DNA from: an uncultured Calditrichaceae bacterium
GTDB lineage: Bacteria > Calditrichota > Calditrichia > RBG-13-44-9
Assembly (NCBI GenBank): GCA_964624795.1
Contig: CAZUZS010000015.1
Location: 2,663 to 66,662, forward strand
Direction: 5' to 3'
DNA length: 64,000 nt
Every line of letters begins with the position of its first letter. Positions within the stretch are counted from its first letter, which is position 1. Positions 10,384-55,025 of the stretch are shown here, one piece after another. Both the position numbers and the translations under genes were made by a program. Under the pieces are notes generated by a model, which saw only the letters and a list, made by a program, of their open reading frames with translations, was not told the DNA's origin and made no database searches.

Positions 10384-11184
10384 CTAACTTTTCCTGGTAA
10401 CGATGACGCGATCCGAAAATGTCAGATCAATTTTTTTAATTTGATCCAGTTTATTGAGAATCGGCGTGCTGTTTATCAGCTCGCTCAGTTTATAAATTCT
10501 CTCGTACGGCGAACTCTCACCGATTTCCACAATTGCCCCACCGCGAATCAGAAAAAGTGTGGGAGGCGTCCTGGAATCGATATGAACCTCAGAAATATAG
10601 TTGAACAAACCTTCGTCCACTTCATCGATGGTCCGGATCAGTCCCAGCGCCTGGAACAGCGGATCGCGATTTTGGAGCAGCCTGCTAACCGACAAACCGG
10701 TAATGAGCGGCAGATTTTCCAGCGACATCGCCGGCTTTTTCAACAGAATTTTGCCGAAACGGTCGATCATGTAAACCTTGCTGTCGATCAGGTACGCCAC
10801 CGGCGTTCTTTCCTGCACGGTAATGATGAGCGTGGACGGAAGCGAACGGCTGACGCTTACTCCCTGCAGGTAGGGATTTTGCAGAATCCGCTTCACCACC
10901 GAGTCGGTCGGAACCCGGTAAAGCCGCACACCCGCCTCAATTTTGGCCAGGTTCAGAATATCATTTTTCTCAACCCATCGGTTCCCTTCCACCCGAACCT
11001 CTTTCAGTGTGAACATCTGGCTTTTGGTGACCAGGTAGTTCGCAAAGCGGTAAAATCCAAAACCCACGCCAACAAGTATGATTATGGCCAAAATGAATGC
11101 CGGAGATGGAAACGGTGCTTTTTCCCGCGCCGAACGATCCGCCAACCGGTACTGGCGCGTCATTTGTGGTCGCCTGCTATTCAT
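10384..11184 (-). CDS. ftsQ: Cell division protein FtsQ (POTRA domain)
   Basis: Single N-terminal TM segment followed by POTRA-like and FtsQ domains. It sits between murB and ftsA in the dcw cluster. Confidence 0.8.
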   Translation of the reverse strand: MNSRRPQMTRQYRLADRSAREKAPFPSPAFILAIIILVGVGFGFYRFANYLVTKSQMFTLKEVRVEGNRWVEKNDILNLAKIEAGVRLYRVPTDSVVKRILQNPYLQGVSVSRSLPSTLIITVQERTPVAYLIDSKVYMIDRFGKILLKKPAMSLENLPLITGLSVSRLLQNRDPLFQALGLIRTIDEVDEGLFNYISEVHIDSRTPPTLFLIRGGAIVEIGESSPYERIYKLSELINSTPILNKLDQIKKIDLTFSDRVIVTRKS

Positions 11185-12130
11185 GCGGTCCCCGAACTCT
11201 TTTCATTTCTTCGGTGCTAAATCCCAACAATTTCACCTCCAGCTCCAGCCATACGCCGAACCGGCGGTAAACTTCGTACTGAACATCTCCAATTAATCTA
11301 TAAATGTCGGCGGCCTTGGCGCCGTCGTAATTGACAATAAAATTTGCGTGCTTGGTAGATACCATGGCGCCGCCAACCCGCATCCCTTTGCACCCTGCCT
11401 TTTCGATCAACACTCCCGCGTAATTCCCCGGCGGCCGTTTGAAAACGCTGCCGCACGATCCGTATTCCAAGGGCTGTTTGGAGGCCCGCCGTTCCAGGTA
11501 ATTCTGCCTGGCCCTCTCAAGATCGGTTTTAGAACCGTCCAGCATCTGCAATTTGCAGCCCACCAAAGTTTTGTTCTGTAAATTTATCGCTCTGCGATAT
11601 CCAAAGCCCGCCTGCTCCCCGCGGATGGTGACAGAATCCCCGGACCGCATCAGTGCGTCAATGTGCACTACCCGGTCCCCGATTTCCCCCACAAATGCAC
11701 CTGCGTTCATATGCAGTGCACCTCCCACTGTTCCGGGAATGCCGGACATAAAATCCAGGCCGGCAAGATTATTTTCCTCGCAGTAACCGACCAACGCCGA
11801 GACCAGCGCACCGCTGCCAGCGTAGACCTCATATCCCTGGTGCGTGATTTCAGAACAGCAGCGATCCAGGCGAATCACAACCATTTGAACGCCGCTATCG
11901 TGGACCAGGAGATTGGAACCGCTGCCCAGGATGAAGAACGGAATATTTTCCCCGCTGCACTCTGCAACTAAGCGCTGCAGATCCTGCCGGGTGGCGGGAC
12001 TGCAGAGTGCTGCCGCCGGCCCACCCACATGGTAGGTAGTGTAATCGCGGAGCGGTTCATTTAGCTTTACCTGTCCGGGAAATCGTTCCGGCAGGCGTTC
12101 CGCAAAATTATGGACCCGAGGTTTTTCCAT
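11177..12130 (-). CDS. murB: UDP-N-acetylenolpyruvoylglucosamine reductase
   Basis: FAD-binding MurB N-terminus (LRDYTTYHVGGPAAAL) and MurB C-terminal domain. Confidence 0.93.
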   Translation of the reverse strand: MEKPRVHNFAERLPERFPGQVKLNEPLRDYTTYHVGGPAAALCSPATRQDLQRLVAECSGENIPFFILGSGSNLLVHDSGVQMVVIRLDRCCSEITHQGYEVYAGSGALVSALVGYCEENNLAGLDFMSGIPGTVGGALHMNAGAFVGEIGDRVVHIDALMRSGDSVTIRGEQAGFGYRRAINLQNKTLVGCKLQMLDGSKTDLERARQNYLERRASKQPLEYGSCGSVFKRPPGNYAGVLIEKAGCKGMRVGGAMVSTKHANFIVNYDGAKAADIYRLIGDVQYEVYRRFGVWLELEVKLLGFSTEEMKRVRGPHE

Positions 12131-42994: not shown

Positions 42995-43429
42995 TCAGCC
43001 GGCCCAATATTTTTTTAGCAGCTCATTCTCCAGACGATGCATCTTTTCCCGTTCCGCTTCGGTTGCATCGTCGTAGCCTTCCAAATGAAGCAGTCCGTGG
43101 AAAATCAGCCGAGCAATCTCGTTTGTCACCGGGACGCCGTACTGCCTGGCCTGTATTTTTGCCCTATCGAAACTGATGTAGATTTCTGCTTCTATTTCTC
43201 CGCCGGGATTCAAATTGAATGTCATGACGTCGGTGTAGCTGCTATCGTTCAGATATTTGGAGTGCAATTTTCGAAGATATTCGTCATCGACCAGGATCAC
43301 GCTCAATTCATTTACCGCCAGGCGTCGCTCAACCAGCACGCGATCAATAACCGGCTTATACTGCTTAAGGGATATTTCATTCCCAGGGAGATCATTGTGC
43401 AGGTGTATGTTCGCTCTCTTTCTTGTCAT
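42995..43429 (-). CDS. ybeY: rRNA maturation endoribonuclease YbeY
   Basis: Zinc motif HGLLHLEGYD. Start chosen at ATG 43429 (MTRKRANIHLHN...). The track ORF reads through from the upstream gene's 3' region. Confidence 0.88.
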   Translation of the reverse strand: MTRKRANIHLHNDLPGNEISLKQYKPVIDRVLVERRLAVNELSVILVDDEYLRKLHSKYLNDSSYTDVMTFNLNPGGEIEAEIYISFDRAKIQARQYGVPVTNEIARLIFHGLLHLEGYDDATEAEREKMHRLENELLKKYWAG

Positions 43430-45851
43430 CTTTATCTTTCTCCACGCCGCCGGAAGCCTGCTTTTCCCTGCCGGACGCCTCATCGGCAGATGCCGGAGAT
43501 TTCGCACCGCCCTTTCTGCTCTTTTGCGGCGTAATTTTTCCCTCTGCCTCTTGTTTTTCAGAACCGGACTGACGGCCTTTCTCACCTTTGGGCTCACTTC
43601 CCGGGTACTCAATCCGGAGGTGGTGAATGCCCATTAAAATAGGAATAAATGCCTGTTTGATCTCATTCAATTCGCGCAACGTCACATCGCATTCATCCAG
43701 TTGTCCCTCCTGAAATCGCTTTTCAATAAGGTCTTCCACCAGGGAGCTGATCCGTTGAAGGTTGGGATTGGGAAGCGCGCGGGAAGCAGCTTCCACAGCG
43801 TCGGCCAGCATCGAGATGGCGGTTTCCTTGGACTGCGGTTTTGGCCCCGGATACCTGAAATCATTCTCATTGATGTCTTTGGGGTCCATGGTCTCGGTGG
43901 CCTTATGATAAAAATAGGCCATCAGGTTGGTTCCGTGATGTTCCGGAATGAACTGTTTTACTGCGCGCGGCAGTCCATACTCATCAGCCAGTTCAAGACC
44001 GGCTTTTACATGCTTGGCAAGAATCAGCGAACTCATGGTGGGCGTCAATTTTTCGTGCTTGTTCATCGCCCCGGCTTGATTTTCGACAAAATATTCGGCG
44101 CGCTGCATTTTCCCGACATCGTGGTAATAACAGCCTACCCGCGCCAGCAGTGAGTTTGCGCCAATCGCCTTCGCCGCCGCCTCCGCCAGATTTCCCACGA
44201 TTATGCTGTGGTGGAAGGTACCCGGCGCTTCTACCGACAGCCGTTTCAACAGCGGATGGTTCAGATCTGACAATTCCAGCAGCGTAATATCGGTCGATAC
44301 ATCGAACAGCTTCTCAAAAATGCCGATCAGCAAAAAAACCGCCGTGGGAACCAGGATGGCATTGGGTAGCATGTAGAAGCCCAGGTTTTGCAGCATGGAA
44401 GAGAAAGAGTCGTAGTGAATGAAACCGTAACTAAAACTAAGTATGCTGTACCCAATTAGAATGTAAAGAATCGCACGAAACATCTGCCCCCGGTTGCGGA
44501 TCTTCTGGACTGAAAGTAATGCGATGGTGCCAACCACCAGCGTAACCAGCGCCAGGTAGAAATTATTGCCCTGCGCAGCACCCAGTACAAAACTGATGAC
44601 AACTGTGCCCAGAAATGCTACCGGGGCATCCAGCAGCATGGATAGCAGCATAGGGCCCAGTGTGACGGGAATACTCAGGAAATTCCATTTCAAAACACCA
44701 TCGATCAGCATTGCCAAAAGAAATTGAATTATGAGTATGGTGGTGATAAGGCCGAGCATTTTGTTATCGGCAAAAAATCCGGGACGGTAATAATAGACAT
44801 AAATGCCAAATATGAAGATTATTAAAAGTGCAAAAATATATTCCCCGACATAAAAGAGGAAGTGATGCCAGCCGCGTTGCAGACCGCTTCGTTCCTTTAA
44901 CGCCTCAGCTAACGACTGCAATTTCAGGTAGATATCCTCTGTAATAATTTCGTGGCTATCAACAATCCGTTCATCCTTATGCACAAAGCCGCTGGTTGTC
45001 GGTACTTCGTGAATCGCTTTATCTTTGCGGGTGGTGGTGATTTCCTGGTTATATATAAGATCGGGGGTAAGAAAAGCCGACACTATCATCGGCGCCAATT
45101 GAACCTCTGCAGAGGTTGCAGGATATTTCCTGCTGAGGATGTCGGAAATCGTTTTTTTTGCCTCCTGCAAGTCCATCACCTGGTCTACATCTGTTTCCTC
45201 TTCCACGCCATTTCGGATTATGATCAACTTTTTCTCTTCGATCCTGTCTTTAGGAACATTAATTATGCCGCTACTATACACCCTGGAAAATGCATCCGTA
45301 AGGTTTTTATGGAATAGACTCAGTTGTTTGGTCCGGTACAATTCGAATAGCTGATTCACATTCTCAAAAGTTAAGCTCACATTATATTTAACAAATATCT
45401 GTTGAATCAGGCTGTCCACCTTCGCCTCCCGCGGCAACTTATCCTTCTCAAGGTTCTGCGTTTTCACATCCCGCATAATTTTCCCAAAGAAGACAGTCAG
45501 TTCCTCGAACAACTTCTTCAATTTTAGATCCTGCACTTCCACAGCGTTAGACTGGTGGTCGTACACCGGGGGAACACTCAGCCGGGCCTGTTCTCTCTCC
45601 CGGGCCAGTACATCTTTGGATTTGATAATCGGAAAGGTAAATGGTGCAATAATCTCGCTGCGGGCGATACTGCCCACTGTGAGATTGCTGTATTCAAAAG
45701 GACGCTCACTTGGCAGCATGACGACGATAACCAGCACCAAAATAACACCAAGGATAGTTTTTGCCAGCACGTCATCCAGCGGTTTACCCAGAAATGTTTT
45801 CTTGTTCAGGTAATCGTTAACCTCTTTTCGGATCACAGAAAATTTCTTCAT
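43392..45851 (-). CDS. 7TM-receptor-like membrane protein with intracellular HD phosphohydrolase domain (PgpH/YqfF family)
   Basis: Extracellular N-domain, seven TM helices, and a C-terminal HD/HDIG domain (HHSIIVGNLAE...HDVGK). Lys/Glu-rich tail. Start chosen at MKKFSV (ATG 45851, GAAGGT SD). Confidence 0.85.
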   Translation of the reverse strand: MKKFSVIRKEVNDYLNKKTFLGKPLDDVLAKTILGVILVLVIVVMLPSERPFEYSNLTVGSIARSEIIAPFTFPIIKSKDVLAREREQARLSVPPVYDHQSNAVEVQDLKLKKLFEELTVFFGKIMRDVKTQNLEKDKLPREAKVDSLIQQIFVKYNVSLTFENVNQLFELYRTKQLSLFHKNLTDAFSRVYSSGIINVPKDRIEEKKLIIIRNGVEEETDVDQVMDLQEAKKTISDILSRKYPATSAEVQLAPMIVSAFLTPDLIYNQEITTTRKDKAIHEVPTTSGFVHKDERIVDSHEIITEDIYLKLQSLAEALKERSGLQRGWHHFLFYVGEYIFALLIIFIFGIYVYYYRPGFFADNKMLGLITTILIIQFLLAMLIDGVLKWNFLSIPVTLGPMLLSMLLDAPVAFLGTVVISFVLGAAQGNNFYLALVTLVVGTIALLSVQKIRNRGQMFRAILYILIGYSILSFSYGFIHYDSFSSMLQNLGFYMLPNAILVPTAVFLLIGIFEKLFDVSTDITLLELSDLNHPLLKRLSVEAPGTFHHSIIVGNLAEAAAKAIGANSLLARVGCYYHDVGKMQRAEYFVENQAGAMNKHEKLTPTMSSLILAKHVKAGLELADEYGLPRAVKQFIPEHHGTNLMAYFYHKATETMDPKDINENDFRYPGPKPQSKETAISMLADAVEAASRALPNPNLQRISSLVEDLIEKRFQEGQLDECDVTLRELNEIKQAFIPILMGIHHLRIEYPGSEPKGEKGRQSGSEKQEAEGKITPQKSRKGGAKSPASADEASGREKQASGGVEKDKDDKKESEHTPAQ

Positions 45852-46219
45852 TCGGTTACCTTCGTTTCCTTCATGGTTTTCAACCGGTAATATAATTAAA
45901 AAACGGCAGATATGGAAAATTATCTTAAAAGTGCAAAGCCTACCTGATCTCCGTAATTTCCGGGACCGGATCATCTGTTATAAGATCTAAAAATTACACT
46001 TCAGGGTAAATTGGGACAGGCCCCAAAGGCGACGACGCCTGCCGGATGGGCCGGCTTCACGGCCCGGATGACCTCGCTCTGTTATTTGTCAGCCACATCT
46101 CCGGCCTCCATACCGAAACCGGGAGAAGAGGTCACAAGCATTACTGCAGTGACGGGGATACTGCGGTTGTTGCCTGCTCCTTTCATGAAAGGCAACTTTG
46201 CCGAATGTCCAAGATTATC

Positions 46220-49735: not shown

Positions 49736-49873
49736 AACTTGATTCACCCAAATTCAGTATTTTCCGAAAGCCTGGATGGTCCCTTTGAATTTGAAAACAA
49801 TCTTAAAATAAACCTCCGAACATGCTGCCGGGGAAGCACAAATACAAATTCTCCATCAGGGAAGGAAACGAAA

Positions 49874-50911
49874 ATGGCGGAAATTCGGTTTCGAAAAGAG
49901 CGGGTTACCGCGAGAATTCGTAATCCATTGCACAATTTTGAATTGACAGAAGATCATATTGAGATACGCTTCGATCCGTTGCTGGGAAACACCACGCGAA
50001 TCGCCGGTCCTAAGGGCCTGGATAAAATCCCGGAAGAAGATCCGCTGCAGGAGTTCGTGGCAAACGCCAAACCATGTTTTTTCTGCGCCGGCCGGGTGGA
50101 GAACCAAACGCCGAAGATGCCGCATGGAATAAATCCCGAGGGAAGGATTGAAATTGGTGAAGCACTGCTCTTTCCGAATCTTTCCGGTTTCGCGCGCTAC
50201 AGCGGGGTCTGCATCTTTTCCAAAGAACACTTTATTTATCTGAACGCGTTCAGCGAAGGACAGATTCTGAATGCTTTAAAAGCCTGCCGACAATATCTTC
50301 AACAATGCGCGAAATTCGATAACGAAATCCTTTATGCCAGCGTGAACGGAAATTACCTGCTTCCGGCGGGCAGCAGCATTCTGCACCCTCACCTGCAGCC
50401 CATCCTCGACCCCTATCCCACCAATCATCAGCGGCTGCTGCTGGAACACAGCGAACAGTATTTTCAGAATTATCGCTCGAACTTCTGGACGGACTTAAAG
50501 GCACAGGAAGAACCAGGACCGCGTTCCCTGTTCAAATCCGCGCACACCTTTTTCTTCACGCCGTTCGCACCGGTAGGATTTAACGAAATCGATGCCGTCA
50601 TCGGAAACGGTGAACCATTCCCGGAGTTGGATGACCAAGTTCTGCAGGAATTATCATCGGGAATAAAAAAGATTTTCTCGTTTTACCACAGCCGGAACCG
50701 GAACAGTTTTAACCTGGCGATTTTCTCGCCGCCGGTTTCTCCGGACAGAAGAAGATCTCAGATGCCATGCATTTTAAAAATCTGCACCCGCCCTGCTCTT
50801 GCCCCGTATTACCGTAACGATGTGACTTTTTTTGAGAAACTTCATGCCGAATCGATGATCGACTGTACGCCGGAGCAAGTAGCGCAGGATTTTCGAAATC
50901 AGATGAGTTAG
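49874..50911 (+). CDS. GalT-like HIT-superfamily nucleotidyltransferase (galactose-1-phosphate uridylyltransferase family)
   Basis: CFFCAG Cys pair and HPHLQ (compare GalT HPHGQ). Start chosen at MAEIRF with an AGGAAACGAAA SD. Confidence 0.72.
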   Translation: MAEIRFRKERVTARIRNPLHNFELTEDHIEIRFDPLLGNTTRIAGPKGLDKIPEEDPLQEFVANAKPCFFCAGRVENQTPKMPHGINPEGRIEIGEALLFPNLSGFARYSGVCIFSKEHFIYLNAFSEGQILNALKACRQYLQQCAKFDNEILYASVNGNYLLPAGSSILHPHLQPILDPYPTNHQRLLLEHSEQYFQNYRSNFWTDLKAQEEPGPRSLFKSAHTFFFTPFAPVGFNEIDAVIGNGEPFPELDDQVLQELSSGIKKIFSFYHSRNRNSFNLAIFSPPVSPDRRRSQMPCILKICTRPALAPYYRNDVTFFEKLHAESMIDCTPEQVAQDFRNQMS

Positions 50912-50954: not shown

Positions 50955-50960
50955 CATTTG

Positions 50961-51033
50961 TAGCGCGTACGGGAGTCGAACCCGTGTTACCGACGTGAGA
51001 GGCCGGCGTCCTGGACCACTAGACGAACGCGCC
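50961..51033 (-). tRNA. tRNA-Glu (anticodon CUC)
   Basis: Minus-strand cloverleaf GGCGCGTTCGTCTAGTGGTCCAGGACGCCGGCCTCTCACGTCGGTAACACGGGTTCGACTCCCGTACGCGCTA. It aligns position-by-position with E. coli tRNA-Glu. The anticodon loop is CUCUCAC. No encoded CCA. Confidence 0.88.
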
Positions 51034-51326: not shown

Positions 51327-51552
51327 TCTTAAAACCTCCGTGTCAGGTAAAGCATAAATCCGTACATACACATCAATCTTACTATCTTAAGGCCAACAGC
51401 GTGCCAATTTTCTGAAGAGGCATGAAAATATAGGAGCATCCAGCAATTAGTCGTTGCTGAGGGAACTATTGATTATCAAATCCAGAATCTGATGTATTTC
51501 ACAGCGGGGAGATTAAAGAAAATAGAGGGTGTTTTGTCTGTCAAAAAAAGAG

Positions 51553-51626
51553 CACGCCCGGAGGGACTCGAACCCCCAACCCTCAGATCCGAAGTCTGAT
51601 GCTCTATCCAATTGAGCTACGGGCGC
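51553..51626 (-). tRNA. tRNA-Arg (anticodon UCG)
   Basis: GCGCCCGTAGCTCAATTGGATAGAGCATCAGACTTCGGATCTGAGGGTTGGGGGTTCGAGTCCCTCCGGGCGTG. Anticodon loop CUUCGGA. Perfect anticodon and T stems. Confidence 0.9.
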
Positions 51627-51631
51627 GAAAG

Positions 51632-51715
51632 TGCGCGGGGAGGGACTCGAACCCTCACGGGATTTCTCCCACCAGATCCTAAGTCTGGCGCGTCTGCCAA
51701 TTCCGCCATCCGCGC
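51632..51715 (-). tRNA. tRNA-Leu (anticodon UAG)
   Basis: 84 nt with a long variable arm. Anticodon loop CUUAGGA. It lies 5 nt upstream of tRNA-Arg, so the two are probably co-transcribed. Confidence 0.9.
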
Positions 51716-51764: not shown

Positions 51765-52247
51765 TCAGGAACTCAACAGCAAATCGCCCCAGCATTTTTT
51801 CCAGACCTGCAGCAGACTCTCCCGCTCCTCCGGGTTCCAGAACATCAGGCGGCTGCGCTCGGCCAGGTACATGCCGTTCTCGGCAATATAATCCGCCATT
51901 TGCTCCGTCCATTCCGGACTGGTGGCAAGCGCAATCACCACCGCCGCCCTTTTCTCCAGCTCCGGCAGCAGCTCGGTAACCCGCGGGGAAGACTGCCATT
52001 CGCTATACGCTTCGCGATTAGCGAGAAAGACAGCGCTTTTAACATGCGGCAGGACATGTTCCATCAGCACGTCGCTTACCTGCTGGCCGTCATTCAGTTT
52101 ATAAACCAGGATAACAACATCCGGATTGACCTCCATCCGAAAAACCGGAATTTCCAGATCGGTAATGGGAATGAAAGGAAGCGCCTCCGCCAGCTTGCCA
52201 AAAAGACCGTCCGTTTGCTCAACAACCAGCGTTTCTAAAATTTGCAT
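51765..52247 (-). CDS. Hypothetical 160-aa protein, third gene of the DUF4388/GTPase operon
   Basis: Its start lies 3 nt after the upstream gene's stop. I recognise no motif in it. It could be an MglB/Roadblock-like or other regulatory partner. Confidence 0.65.
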   Translation of the reverse strand: MQILETLVVEQTDGLFGKLAEALPFIPITDLEIPVFRMEVNPDVVILVYKLNDGQQVSDVLMEHVLPHVKSAVFLANREAYSEWQSSPRVTELLPELEKRAAVVIALATSPEWTEQMADYIAENGMYLAERSRLMFWNPEERESLLQVWKKCWGDLLLSS

Positions 52248-52250
52248 AGA

Positions 52251-53381
52251 CTATTGTTCCCTGAGATATTTGGATATGGACTGGATTGCACCCGGATTTA
52301 TTTTTGCGGGCTGGTGTATCAGCTCCGGCTTTGCGATATCCATTTTTACCGGCGGCGGCAAAGTGGGCTCTTCTATTTCTTCAGTTTTTTTTTCTTTTTT
52401 GAAAAAACTGCCAAACGAGTTGAATAGCCGTCCCAATCCTTTTTTCTCCGCTTTCTGTTTTTCGAGCAGCTCGAAATCCTGGCGGCGAACCAGCATTTTT
52501 CCCTCGACCAAACTCAATGCGTTTTTTAATATCTCCTGATTATCCTCATTCATCGAAATCATCAGGTCGGAAAGCGTTTCTCCCTCCTGGCACAGGTCGA
52601 GAATCTGCGCCTGAATTTCATTCTGCGGCGGCTCCGGCGATTCGACGGAGATATACTCTTCCTGAAGATTGGGGAGAGATTGAAAATATTTTTCCTGTTC
52701 TCCGAGCTGCTGAACCAGCTCTACCAATAGCTCCTCGTTGCTCAGTTCCAGGCTGTCTGCCAGGTCCACACGCGTAAATTGCACATGAAAATTTGCCTTG
52801 CTCAGGTTTACGAGCTTTGAGAGCGCGTGAAAAGTATCGAGGTTGCGGAAAGAAGCCCGGATGACCTTTCCGCCACGGAAATACACTTGGCCCAGGTGAT
52901 CGCGGTACGAGATGGAAAGAATGGCGTCCTTGTGGCTGGTCTCCACCATCTGTATCAGGTCGATCAGGCTGAATTCATCCAGGTTGCCCTGCCAGTGCTG
53001 TCCCTGCATTGCGTTCGACTCGTCGTCTATCGCGTGCGACAGTTTATTCAGGTGAATGAAAAACTCCTCCCGCGGCAGGGGGATTGTAATAATGTCCGCA
53101 ATGGGCAACTGCAGGACGGCTGAAAAATCCTCATTTTTATGAACCACCGGAATCACCGGCAGATATGCCAATTCCTGCATATTGAGAACAGTGAGAACAT
53201 CGGCAACCACATCATGAGTTGCCGGCCACACCAAAATGAGATCGACGAATTCCTGCTTGCAGATTTCCACCAGCTCTTCCACGCTGGTCGCTTTGTGAAA
53301 CAAAAAATTGCGGCCCTTCAGGGTGGAAATGATCTCATCCTCATACTGGTTGTCTAAGAGGTAAATTAACAAATCGATCAT
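52251..53381 (-). CDS. REC-like (probable pseudo-receiver) plus DUF4388 domain protein
   Basis: N-terminal CheY-like fold with VDLILV but poor conservation of the other acidic-pocket positions. The central segment GNLDEFSLIDLIQMVETSHKDAILSISYRDHLGQVYFRGGKVIRASF matches the DUF4388 pattern. Low-complexity Glu/Lys/Pro-rich tail. Confidence 0.78.
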   Translation of the reverse strand: MIDLLIYLLDNQYEDEIISTLKGRNFLFHKATSVEELVEICKQEFVDLILVWPATHDVVADVLTVLNMQELAYLPVIPVVHKNEDFSAVLQLPIADIITIPLPREEFFIHLNKLSHAIDDESNAMQGQHWQGNLDEFSLIDLIQMVETSHKDAILSISYRDHLGQVYFRGGKVIRASFRNLDTFHALSKLVNLSKANFHVQFTRVDLADSLELSNEELLVELVQQLGEQEKYFQSLPNLQEEYISVESPEPPQNEIQAQILDLCQEGETLSDLMISMNEDNQEILKNALSLVEGKMLVRRQDFELLEKQKAEKKGLGRLFNSFGSFFKKEKKTEEIEEPTLPPPVKMDIAKPELIHQPAKINPGAIQSISKYLREQ

Positions 53382-53386
53382 TGCTT

Positions 53387-54865
53387 CTATTCCTCTTTCC
53401 GGGTTTCGATTGGCGTCGCCTGGTTCAAATGGTAAAACAGTTGTCTTACCTGGCGAAAGTCACCGGGATTAAGCGGGATTGTCTCGATTTCCGGAGGAAT
53501 TTCCAGATCGCGCCGTATCTGCATGGCCACCTGTTCCGGGTTTCCCTGAATCCTGGTTAAGGCAATAACCAGAGGAACCCGGTAATTGGAGATAAACTGC
53601 TGGATCAGGTATTTGGTATAATCATTTTTATCGGTTTGCGAACAGTCAACCAGGTAAAAACAGGCTAACATATTGGACGACAGTTTGCGCATCATCGGCT
53701 GGAAGTAGGAATCGATGGAGATTCCGAACACATTTAGCCGCAGATCGGAGGCCAATTGAATTCGCATAAAATCGACAGACTGTGCGGTCTTGATATCTTT
53801 GCTATTCTTGCCGGCCAATGTTTTGATGAGCTGCGATTTTCCGGAGGTCGGGTAGCCGAGAACAATCAGACGGCCCTCTTTCATACCCGGTTTAAAAAGC
53901 TTTTCCCGGATGAATTCAACATCTTCTTCCGCAAAGGCCTTGAGGCTCGATCCGTTCACTTCGGTATTGATAATGCCGGCCCGGTAGAGTCTGTCCAGCG
54001 TGCGTGTGGTTTTCAGGAATCCGTACGGCGAAGCTGAAAGTATTCTCCGGAATTCTTTTTCGTTCTGCACAAGCTCTGAAATCCTTCGATCGGCGTCCGG
54101 GAGGGCATCCTGGGAATCGGAATTATTTTTCTTGAAAACAGGGTTGGCCATTCCGAACTGCTGCAGGAAATCCATCAGGATTTTCGTCTCGAACGCAGCC
54201 TCTACCGCCAGCGCATAGGAGGAGACATTGCTGGTCGAAACTTCCCGCCGCTTGGTAAACGATTGCATCCGGAAGGTGCCCTTCTGATGCTGCAAAATGT
54301 CAAGCGCTGCGTCGATTCCCGCCTTGCCGGGGCACACCGCCTCCACAACTTCCCCCTGGAATGTCCTGATTTTTGCCTGCCAGTCATCGTCCAGGATTTT
54401 CAGAATAAAATTCTTTTTGTCATAAATACCGTTTAAGAGGATTTCACGAAGGTGAAACTCCTTCATGTTTCCACGTGTCACGTATTTTTCCACAAGCGGT
54501 TTCAATTCCCGCTGCCTGAAAATATGGATTCTTACCAAATGAACCAGGAAGGTGGCACCACCGGAGTTCCATTCGACCACCCTGGAAATCCCGGCCCGGT
54601 ACAACCGGAATCTCAGGTCAGGGTCGAGTTCTTCTCCATAAACAATTGTGAATTGCGATTCCAGGAAATCCAGTTCATCCGCTGAATTCTTAATCCATTC
54701 GTACCCAATCAGAACGGCGTCCGGCAGCTTTTTTTCGATGAGTTCGACTAATTGCGGCAGTTCGGACACCAATTCCACCTGGTAGCCGCGCGCCGCGGCA
54801 ATATCACTTATTTCTTTCGCTCGCTCTATATTTGCTTCAAACAGGTAAACAATGGATGCAGCCAT
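53387..54865 (-). CDS. REC-like / DUF4388 / MglA-like P-loop GTPase fusion protein
   Basis: N-terminal receiver-like domain, then a DUF4388-like segment (GNMKEFHLREILLNGIYDKKNFILKIL...FQGEVVEA), then a C-terminal small-GTPase-like domain. The GTPase domain has Walker A GYPTSGKS and LVDCSQ / PLVIAL blocks paralleling MglA. The G3 (DSYFQ instead of DxxGQ) and G4 motifs are degenerate. Confidence 0.78.
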   Translation of the reverse strand: MAASIVYLFEANIERAKEISDIAAARGYQVELVSELPQLVELIEKKLPDAVLIGYEWIKNSADELDFLESQFTIVYGEELDPDLRFRLYRAGISRVVEWNSGGATFLVHLVRIHIFRQRELKPLVEKYVTRGNMKEFHLREILLNGIYDKKNFILKILDDDWQAKIRTFQGEVVEAVCPGKAGIDAALDILQHQKGTFRMQSFTKRREVSTSNVSSYALAVEAAFETKILMDFLQQFGMANPVFKKNNSDSQDALPDADRRISELVQNEKEFRRILSASPYGFLKTTRTLDRLYRAGIINTEVNGSSLKAFAEEDVEFIREKLFKPGMKEGRLIVLGYPTSGKSQLIKTLAGKNSKDIKTAQSVDFMRIQLASDLRLNVFGISIDSYFQPMMRKLSSNMLACFYLVDCSQTDKNDYTKYLIQQFISNYRVPLVIALTRIQGNPEQVAMQIRRDLEIPPEIETIPLNPGDFRQVRQLFYHLNQATPIETRKEE

Positions 54866-55025
54866 ATTACTTTCTTCTTTTTCGATAAACCTATAGAAAT
54901 ATATAGTTTATTAATAGTCGAAGCAACCCGTTTTCATCACCGAACAATTTTTTCTCTAATCCTTCGCTTCCGCGATTCCCGGTGGCCGCCGGAAAATCAT
55001 GCACGATGCAATCCCAATTCTCATC

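Follow-up and report, generated by a model that had tools for sequence, protein, structure and literature searches.

What do three adjacent genes encode in which receiver, DUF4388 and GTPase-like sequences meet, and do these genes form a unit? They lie on the minus strand of a 64,000-nucleotide (nt) stretch of DNA from an uncultured Calditrichaceae bacterium (contig CAZUZS010000015.1 of GenBank assembly GCA_964624795.1, forward-strand positions 2,663 to 66,662), here called the window, and are referred to as genes 1, 2 and 3 in the order in which they are read. The three genes form a previously undescribed module of signalling type, conserved in Calditrichota and in candidate division KSB1. 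Gene 1 is equivalent to genes 2 and 3 fused, such that the operon holds the same architecture in a fused and in a split version. An earlier note, made from the sequence alone, had described gene 1 as a CheY-like receiver, a DUF4388 domain (also named PATAN, PF14332) and an MglA-like GTPase in one chain, gene 2 as the same module without the GTPase, and gene 3 as a possible Roadblock-type partner.

Genes 1 and 2 are collinear over their first ~220 amino acids (aa; BLASTP E 0.007), and the alignment of their hidden Markov models (HMMs) spans gene 1 aa 129-303, with the small helical domain that follows PATAN included. On long gene-1-type proteins, the gene 2 HMM scores between 1e-38 and 1e-54. 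The G domain of gene 1 corresponds to gene 3: hhalign aligned the gene 3 family with the gene 1 G-domain family at 98.9% (E 1.4e-17, 148 columns), the gene 1 HMM matches KSB1-type gene 3 proteins (E 6e-10 and 2e-8, HMM positions 324-476), and the gene 3 HMM reciprocally matches gene 1 G domains at aa 333-476. A first hhalign comparison, of gene 3 from Calditrichia only against full-length gene 1, had reached 11%; the homology emerged after KSB1-type sequences were added. Concerning the border between the two parts, the C-terminal helix motif of gene 2, which is kept across Calditrichia and KSB1-type orthologs, resembles the helix preceding the G domain of gene 1 (F..ED..FIR.KLF), and gene 3 starts with strand 1 of the G fold. 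Since fused and split copies of one architecture are encoded side by side, genes 2 and 3 are predicted, by Rosetta-stone logic, to bind each other.

The family was delimited by an exhaustive profile search for gene 1, with counts taken among 50%-identity representatives: 915 members were found at E<=1e-3, 204 at E<=1e-10 and 76 at E<=1e-30. Word-indexed protein searches gave 11 (gene 1 relatives) and 2 matches and thus understate the size of the family; the metagenome scan for further loci was run with KSB1-type sequences. Named members belong to Calditrichia, Calditrichaceae, Calditrichota and candidate division KSB1. For gene order, 61 loci were sampled that possess an entire gene-1-type gene; 46 of them continue for at least 2.3 kb downstream. 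The order gene 1, gene 2, gene 3 is found in 45 of these 46 loci, and the genes are thus co-conserved in related genomes, to a degree well above chance. The exception (L040 8001-16945, checked by tblastn) has an unrelated open reading frame (ORF) of 577 aa after the gene-1-type gene and neither gene 2 nor gene 3. Upstream of the module, methyltransferase genes are found in Calditrichia loci, and a ~425-aa protein together with an NtrC-type sigma-54 activator in KSB1-type loci, where CBS-PALP, Cys/Met-metabolism, Peptidase_MA_2 and LpxL genes follow downstream. Because the neighbours differ between the lineages, the three genes themselves are the conserved unit. No neighbour in the census (lineage-specific housekeeping genes, the NtrC-type and 425-aa genes, or a MotA/ExbB-ExbD group described below) is strong enough for a functional assignment.

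The identity of gene 3 was resolved only by structure prediction and family-level profiles. Sequence searches of gene 3 against Pfam, NCBIfam and the PDB gave no match, in agreement with the previous impression of a protein without recognisable motif. The AlphaFold2 (AF2) model, based on an 11-sequence alignment, exhibits the strand and helix order of small GTPases (predicted local distance difference test, pLDDT, 86; predicted template modelling score, pTM, 0.84). With this model, Foldseek found 609 matches in the PDB at E<=1e-3, and 48 of the best 50 were Arf, Rab, Ras or Rho small GTPases, with TM-scores of 0.45-0.66 at ~10% identity. None of 44 gene 3 orthologs possesses a Walker A motif. 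By its sequence, gene 3 would fit a pseudoGTPase of class i, i.e., the fold without the G motifs.

Concerning the G domain of gene 1, the Pfam model Arf (PF00025) matches aa 328-430 with 25.8 bits (gathering cut-off 22.3), which indicates relatedness, not Arf function. In the sequence search of the PDB, Arl3 and Arf6 were best (E ~4e-5), and the 41 matches at E<=10 comprised Arf/Arl chains and three weak matches to MnmE/TrmE that cover the P-loop only. Foldseek with the gene 1 model returned Arf1, Arl3, Arf6, Sar1 and Arl1 from the PDB (target TM-score up to 0.71); it also returned the response regulator PorX, a match that is attributed to the N-terminal domain of gene 1. A C-terminal Ras-superfamily domain with the Walker A motif GYPTSGKS, as read previously, is thus supported by profile, PDB and fold matches alike, the best of them to Arf/Arl small GTPases. 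The degenerate G3 and G4 motifs, equally part of that reading, were found again. In the HMMER alignment to Arl3, G381, I384 and D385 take the places of D, G and Q of the G3 motif WDxGGQ, and in the alternative register, DSYFQ, Phe stands in place of Gly. Neither register of the gene 1 G domain contains DxxG, and no NKxD (G4) and no canonical G5 were found in it; the G4 region reads ALTRIQG. In the family census of fused G domains, DxxG and NKxD are absent everywhere, and the aligned position of the switch I threonine is not conserved.

The likeness to MglA was not recovered by the same searches: no MglA chain is among the 41 PDB matches or the Foldseek top 50, and the MglA-type G3 with Thr for Asp (TxxGQ) is absent from the gene 1 G domain. 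In the earlier model, an MglA-type polarity GTPase is fused to a scaffold and gene 3 is its Roadblock/MglB-type GTPase-activating protein (GAP) or guanine nucleotide exchange factor. Such a system would agree with the membership of the G domain in the Ras superfamily and with the position of PATAN genes, which sometimes neighbour mglA and mglB genes (PMC4316618). However, gene 3 has, by structure prediction, the fold of a G domain and not that of a Roadblock protein, profile comparison makes it a paralog of the G domain in gene 1, and no Roadblock Pfam match is on record among the called genes of the examined loci. We regard this model as very improbable.

A canonical Walker A motif is kept in 42 of the 144 fused G domains of the representative set and in 6 of the 56 of the loci set; judged by this motif, nucleotide binding is not a conserved property of the family. 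The positions that are kept in at least 85% of these 56 domains (Y416, Y419, L420, P431 and R451) are situated in the model in helices 3 and 4 and immediately ahead of strand 5, outside every G motif. Among the closest relatives of the window gene 1, 8 of 11 have kept Walker A, and in this subclade K359, D385, F388 and Q389 are invariant or nearly so. On these grounds the module might be a dimerisation-activated NTPase switch, in which the gene 1 G domain is active in the Calditrichia subclade, gene 3 is a GAP or co-GTPase supplying a residue in trans (e.g., R37), and the PATAN domains are the effectors. It would be consistent with such a switch that E5, R37 and Y49 of gene 3 are conserved across both phyla and that gene 3 is always encoded alongside the G-domain protein. 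However, the module persists in most of the family without Walker A in either G-like domain, and the conserved function can therefore not need nucleotide hydrolysis; moreover, Asp and Gly of G3 and the NKxD of G4 are absent even in the window protein, and the switch I threonine is not conserved. The switch is accordingly considered rather unlikely.

The N-terminal domains of genes 1 and 2 give no match to Pfam Response_reg (PF00072) when the two window proteins are searched alone, and it is at the family level that their origin becomes apparent. Distant KSB1-type homologs reach 68-87 bits on Response_reg, and the gene 2 family profile (alignment A5) matches receiver domains in the PDB (E 2e-13; 224 chains), among them the pseudo-receiver of FrzS. 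Both proteins were aligned to E. coli CheY, whose numbering was consistent in the alignment. At CheY D12/D13/D57/T87/Y106/K109, gene 1 reads E/A/G/G/V/W and gene 2 D/N/W/V/I/I. In KSB1-type homologs T87, Y106 and K109 are kept, D13 is lost and D57 is replaced by Glu in all of them. In most of the sampled family members, position D57 is taken by G, N, E or W; three (P0006, P0062 and P0075) have D there, without the remaining acidic pocket, T87 and K109. Since the phospho-acceptor Asp and the acidic pocket are lost while receiver homology is clear, the N-terminal domains are, as far as sequence tells, true receiver homologs that would not be phosphorylatable in the canonical way. The loss of the acidic pocket had been suspected beforehand, and the comparison at D12/D13/D57/K109 (E/A/G/W in gene 1, D/N/W/I in gene 2) bears this out; likewise, the description of gene 2 as a repeat of pseudo-receiver and DUF4388 without GTPase agrees with this alignment and with its homology to gene 1. 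Conventional response regulators, with a nearby histidine kinase as phosphodonor, would retain the phospho-acceptor, which is here G (gene 1), W (gene 2) or Glu (KSB1-type), and D13. The Response_reg scores and the kept T87, Y106 and K109 of the distant relatives, as well as sensor kinase genes near some of the loci, point toward such regulators; taken together, this reading is extremely unlikely.

Concerning DUF4388, gene 2 lies above the Pfam cut-off, and gene 1 alone reaches 17.2 bits over aa 131-224, under the gathering cut-off of 25. Gene 1 relatives obtain 45-65 bits, and through them and through the homology to gene 2 the domain can be assigned to gene 1 as well, such that its presence in both genes, as proposed before, stands. 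The PATAN part of the gene 2 family profile had no sequence match in the PDB. The domain had been called functionally uncharacterised; it is, however, the output domain PATAN of cyanobacterial PatA-type regulators (10.1101/2021.06.11.447907). In Synechocystis, PATAN suffices for output and binds two proteins of the type IV pilus, PilB1 and PilC (bioRxiv 10.1101/2021.06.11.447907).

PATAN is followed in both proteins by the small helical domain, which in gene 1 (aa 243-301) may be winged-helix-like, judging from the topology of the model alone, and in gene 2 by a tail in addition. Neither the helical domain nor the gene 2 tail has a Pfam match. Within the tail, the segment LGRLFNSFGSFFKK has the highest helical hydrophobic moment of the gene 2 protein (0.72), and its equivalent ranks 1-5 by hydrophobic moment in all Calditrichia orthologs. 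This amphipathic helix is possibly membrane-targeting; we take it to resemble the membrane-targeting helices of the MinD or FtsA type.

If the helical domain were a DNA-binding winged helix and the G-like domains sensors of ligands or partners, genes 1 and 2 would be a pair of transcription regulators. The three-helix and strand element predicted in gene 1 is conserved in gene 2, KSB1-type loci and L008 repeatedly encode an NtrC-type sigma-54 activator ~2 kb upstream, and PatA was once predicted to bind DNA (mentioned in 10.1101/2021.06.11.447907). The same publication argues against DNA binding of PatA-type proteins, though, and the helical region shows no Pfam match and no PDB sequence match to DNA-binding families; the gene 2 amphipathic helix, moreover, suggests a place at the membrane and not at the nucleoid. 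A role as transcription regulators therefore appears improbable.

The explanation we favour, and to which we give about an even chance, is that the module constitutes a pseudo-symmetric scaffold or adaptor of pseudo-receivers and pseudoGTPases. It would probably act by protein-protein docking and not by phosphotransfer or GTP hydrolysis, its receiver and G-domain parts being predicted from their motifs to be catalytically dead or nearly so. Two duplicated blocks make up the module: block A consists of the aspartate-less receiver, PATAN and the small helical domain, block B of the Arf-like G domain. Gene 1 is A and B fused, gene 2 is block A ending in the helix that precedes B, and gene 3 is block B alone. 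Genes 2 and 3 would associate to a gene-1-like unit, and this unit would pair with gene 1 via the G-like domains or the PATAN modules, thereby forming the pseudo-symmetric scaffold. The scaffold would dock on a partner machine via its PATAN domains, and the gene 2 amphipathic helix would keep it at the membrane. In the window lineage, the retained P-loop might bind nucleotide as a cofactor or as a slow conformational switch.

As to the partner machine, the leading guess, by analogy, is the type IV pilus motor or a cell-pole factor, its sole ground being the binding of PilB and PilC by other PATAN domains. A link to pili or polarity is thus a tentative possibility at most. Carried further, the module might be a device by which bacteria achieve polarity or positioning. 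A G domain, which would bind nucleotide in some lineages, would pair with its P-loop-less paralog, each of them on an arm of dead receiver and PATAN, and the complex, fixed to the membrane by the gene 2 helix, would there recruit or gate an envelope machine, for instance the motor of type IV pili; in this full form the proposal is doubtful.

Several points weigh against the scaffold and its suggested target. All of the interactions rest on gene order, paralogy and Rosetta-stone logic. The AF2 model of gene 1 (pLDDT 81, pTM 0.41) resolves four domains, which are good individually, and its low pTM leaves the predicted packing between them undefined. No pilus, motility or chemotaxis genes adjoin the module in the window, and none recur in the related loci. 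Finally, nucleotide binding is possible in the window subclade because Walker A is present in 8 of 11 relatives and D385, F388 and Q389 are kept, which suggests that binding, and possibly activity, persists there.

The features of the locus are listed in Table 1. That three minus-strand genes are separated by gaps of 5 and 3 nt, as reported beforehand, agrees with the ORF coordinates and the junction sequences, which are TAG-AAGCA-ATG between genes 1 and 2 and TAG-TCT-ATG between genes 2 and 3. A purine-rich stretch is situated immediately 5' of the ATG at both junctions, and translational coupling of the three genes is plausible. In orthologous loci the intergenic spacers are mostly short as well, and some of the genes overlap by 4-8 nt.

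Table 1. Features of the three-gene module and of its flanks (positions refer to the window, aa numbers to the respective protein).
Feature	Position	Strand	Description
Gene 1 ORF	53387-54865	-	492 aa; pseudo-receiver, PATAN, helical (predicted winged-helix-like) domain, Arf-like G domain
Gene 1 receiver (REC) fold, aspartate-less	54488-54865	-	aa 1-126; (beta-alpha)5 topology in AF2 model
Gene 1 PATAN (DUF4388/PF14332)	54161-54481	-	aa 129-235; weak Pfam match, relatives strong, homologous to gene 2 PATAN
Gene 1 small three-helix and strand domain	53963-54139	-	aa 243-301; AF2 secondary structure; aligns with gene 2 orthologs by HMM
Gene 1 Arf/Arl-like G domain	53426-53929	-	aa 313-480; Walker A intact; G3, G4 and G5 degenerate
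Walker A/G1 motif GYPTSGKS	53834-53857	-	aa 337-344; read directly from sequence
Gene 2 ORF	52251-53381	-	376 aa; pseudo-receiver, PATAN, helical domain, tail with amphipathic helix and C-terminal helix
Gene 2 PATAN (PF14332)	52695-52991	-	aa 131-229; 55.7 bits (cut-off 25)
Gene 2 amphipathic helix LGRLFNSFGSFFKK	52395-52436	-	aa 316-329; conserved in ortholog alignment A5
Gene 2 C-terminal helix motif	52254-52304	-	consensus I..EEI..I...L (Calditrichia); L.K.ELL.IREKL (KSB1 types)
Gene 3 ORF	51765-52247	-	160 aa; stand-alone P-loop-less G-domain paralog (putative pseudoGTPase)
Spacer 5' of gene 1	54866-55025	-	160 nt, AT-rich; candidate promoter region
tRNA-Leu(TAG)	51631-51715	-	directly downstream; starts 49 nt past gene 3 stop codon
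tRNA-Arg(TCG)	51552-51626	-	downstream of gene 3
tRNA-Glu(CTC)	50960-51033	-	downstream of gene 3

A scan for promoter and terminator consensus sequences gave no sites above shuffled controls, and no sigma-70 consensus match was found in the spacer upstream of gene 1. A weak GG-N10-GC (sigma-54-like) element was seen there by eye; no claim is drawn from it. Genes for a SpoU-type methylase, a TRAM/U5 methyltransferase and a PALP enzyme lie upstream of the module in the window. In several orthologous loci the spacer 5' of gene 1 is only 30-85 nt long, and read-through from the upstream methyltransferase genes is thus possible. At its other end, the operon may be co-transcribed with the tRNA genes or end just ahead of them.

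Concerning the wider window, an ORF of 390 aa (49739-50911, plus strand) adjoins purM and carries a histidine motif of the HPHLQ type that recalls GalT/HIT-like enzymes; it has no Pfam match at E<=1e-3. A seven-transmembrane receptor of 860 aa (43392-45974, minus strand) combines an extracellular domain with an intracellular HD hydrolase (7TMR-HDED, 7TM-7TMR_HD and HD). Between ~7900 and 25400 on the minus strand, a run of same-strand ORFs forms a dcw-like cluster, FtsZ/FtsA-like to MraW-like (by eye, from N-terminal sequences), which fits a housekeeping neighbourhood. The PADLOC models of defence systems gave no meaningful match to the module, the best being JetC (E 0.031, 10 bits).

In the related loci, the NtrC-type regulator (receiver, sigma-54 activator and HTH_8; ~460 aa) is encoded on the same strand ~2-3.5 kb upstream (L008 6330-7703, L012 3623-5002, L015-L020, L026, L028, L029, L031 and others). 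It occurs in KSB1-type loci and in the one Calditrichia locus without methyltransferase neighbours (L008), and may control transcription of the operon. The ~425-aa protein of KSB1-type loci is encoded directly upstream on the same strand (L018 6152-7429, with homologs in 20 loci), has no Pfam match, is absent from the window, and might in these loci belong to the module as its fourth member. In seven loci, a MotA/ExbB-like protein with C-terminal immunoglobulin-like domains, an ExbD-like protein and a 362-aa protein are encoded 2-4 kb upstream of the module (L060 2651-4237, L069 3165-3575 and L059 5113-6201); this association may be mere shared synteny.

The module itself also varies. Long forms of the gene-1-type protein (560-964 aa; P0080-P0160, alignment A7) have their helical and G domains joined by a low-complexity linker, rich in Pro and Glu, of ~150-450 aa. 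In locus L011 (7001-10214), a gene-1-type protein of 508 aa is followed by a 183-aa protein with PATAN only, by a protein of 175-186 aa that the gene 2 HMM recognises (E 2e-16) and by a gene 3 homolog of 151 aa; here gene 2 apparently is split and lacks a receiver domain. Genes 1 and 2 are 0.4-1.8 kb apart in the KSB1-type loci L009, L034, L035, L042, L044 and L049, and in L009 an additional gene of 89 aa is called between them (10919-11188).

The combination of receiver and PATAN (PF14332) is shared with the PatA-type regulators, i.e., PatA of Anabaena, PixG, PixE and PilG of Synechocystis, and SgnC of Myxococcus. There are some differences, however: PATAN precedes the receiver in PatA-type proteins, whereas it follows the receiver here, and the present module has no phospho-acceptor, a G domain that is fused or adjoining, a paralogous pair of proteins and no adjacent chemotaxis-like or pilus genes. 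The MglA/MglB/RomR-RomX system of Myxococcus xanthus likewise consists of a Ras-superfamily G protein and receiver-domain proteins; here, in contrast, the G domain is Arf/Arl-like, its partner is a P-loop-less G-domain paralog and no Roadblock protein, and most members are predicted to be unable to bind nucleotide canonically. The Pro/Glu-rich linker of the long family members is presumably reminiscent of the Pro-rich region of RomR. The best matches in both sequence and fold are the Arf/Arl/Sar GTPases and the prokaryotic non-MglA 'Rup' proteins (Wuichet and Sogaard-Andersen 2014), from which the family differs by the large fused N-terminal scaffold, by the missing WDxGGQ, NKxD and SAK-type motifs and by the loss of Walker A in most members.

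G-domain folds without G motifs that serve in protein-protein interaction are known from pseudoGTPases, such as pG1 and pG2 of p190RhoGAP and the psGD of AAGAB, the latter of class i (PMC12490416). Unlike these, the proteins described here are bacterial, the pseudoGTPase shares its operon with a paralogous G domain, and no sequence relation to AAGAB psGD or p190RhoGAP is detectable. FrzS of Myxococcus equally uses a receiver fold without phosphorylatable Asp as an interaction module, but in combination with a coiled coil, whereas PATAN and the G domain are the partner domains here. The parts are thus already known, i.e., the receiver, PATAN and the Arf-like G domain, and pseudo-receivers and pseudoGTPases are known concepts. 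In the searchable literature, to which subscription-only papers (e.g., Makarova et al. 2006) did not belong, no description was found of the fusion of receiver, PATAN and G domain, of its split duplication, of the P-loop-less partner or of the Calditrichota/KSB1 operon.

The present labels of family members, 'DUF4388 domain-containing', 'response regulator', 'hypothetical' and 'SR-beta' (JGI), describe none of these proteins. The earlier link between PATAN and small Ras-like G proteins was one of loose gene neighbourhood only, and a PATAN mechanism is known only from cyanobacterial phototaxis; the present family both fuses PATAN with a G domain and encodes the two separately, which is a Rosetta-stone argument for one physical unit. 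With a predicted dead receiver and a dead or half-dead GTPase that have stayed together in one operon in both Calditrichota and KSB1-type lineages, it represents a bacterial case of stacked pseudoenzymes. Walker A, kept in some lineages and lost in most, provides a natural series for a role of the G fold without nucleotide. Should the module prove to be a polarity or positioning device, it would offer a bacterial pairing of GTPase and pseudoGTPase and the first link by fusion of PATAN to small G proteins.

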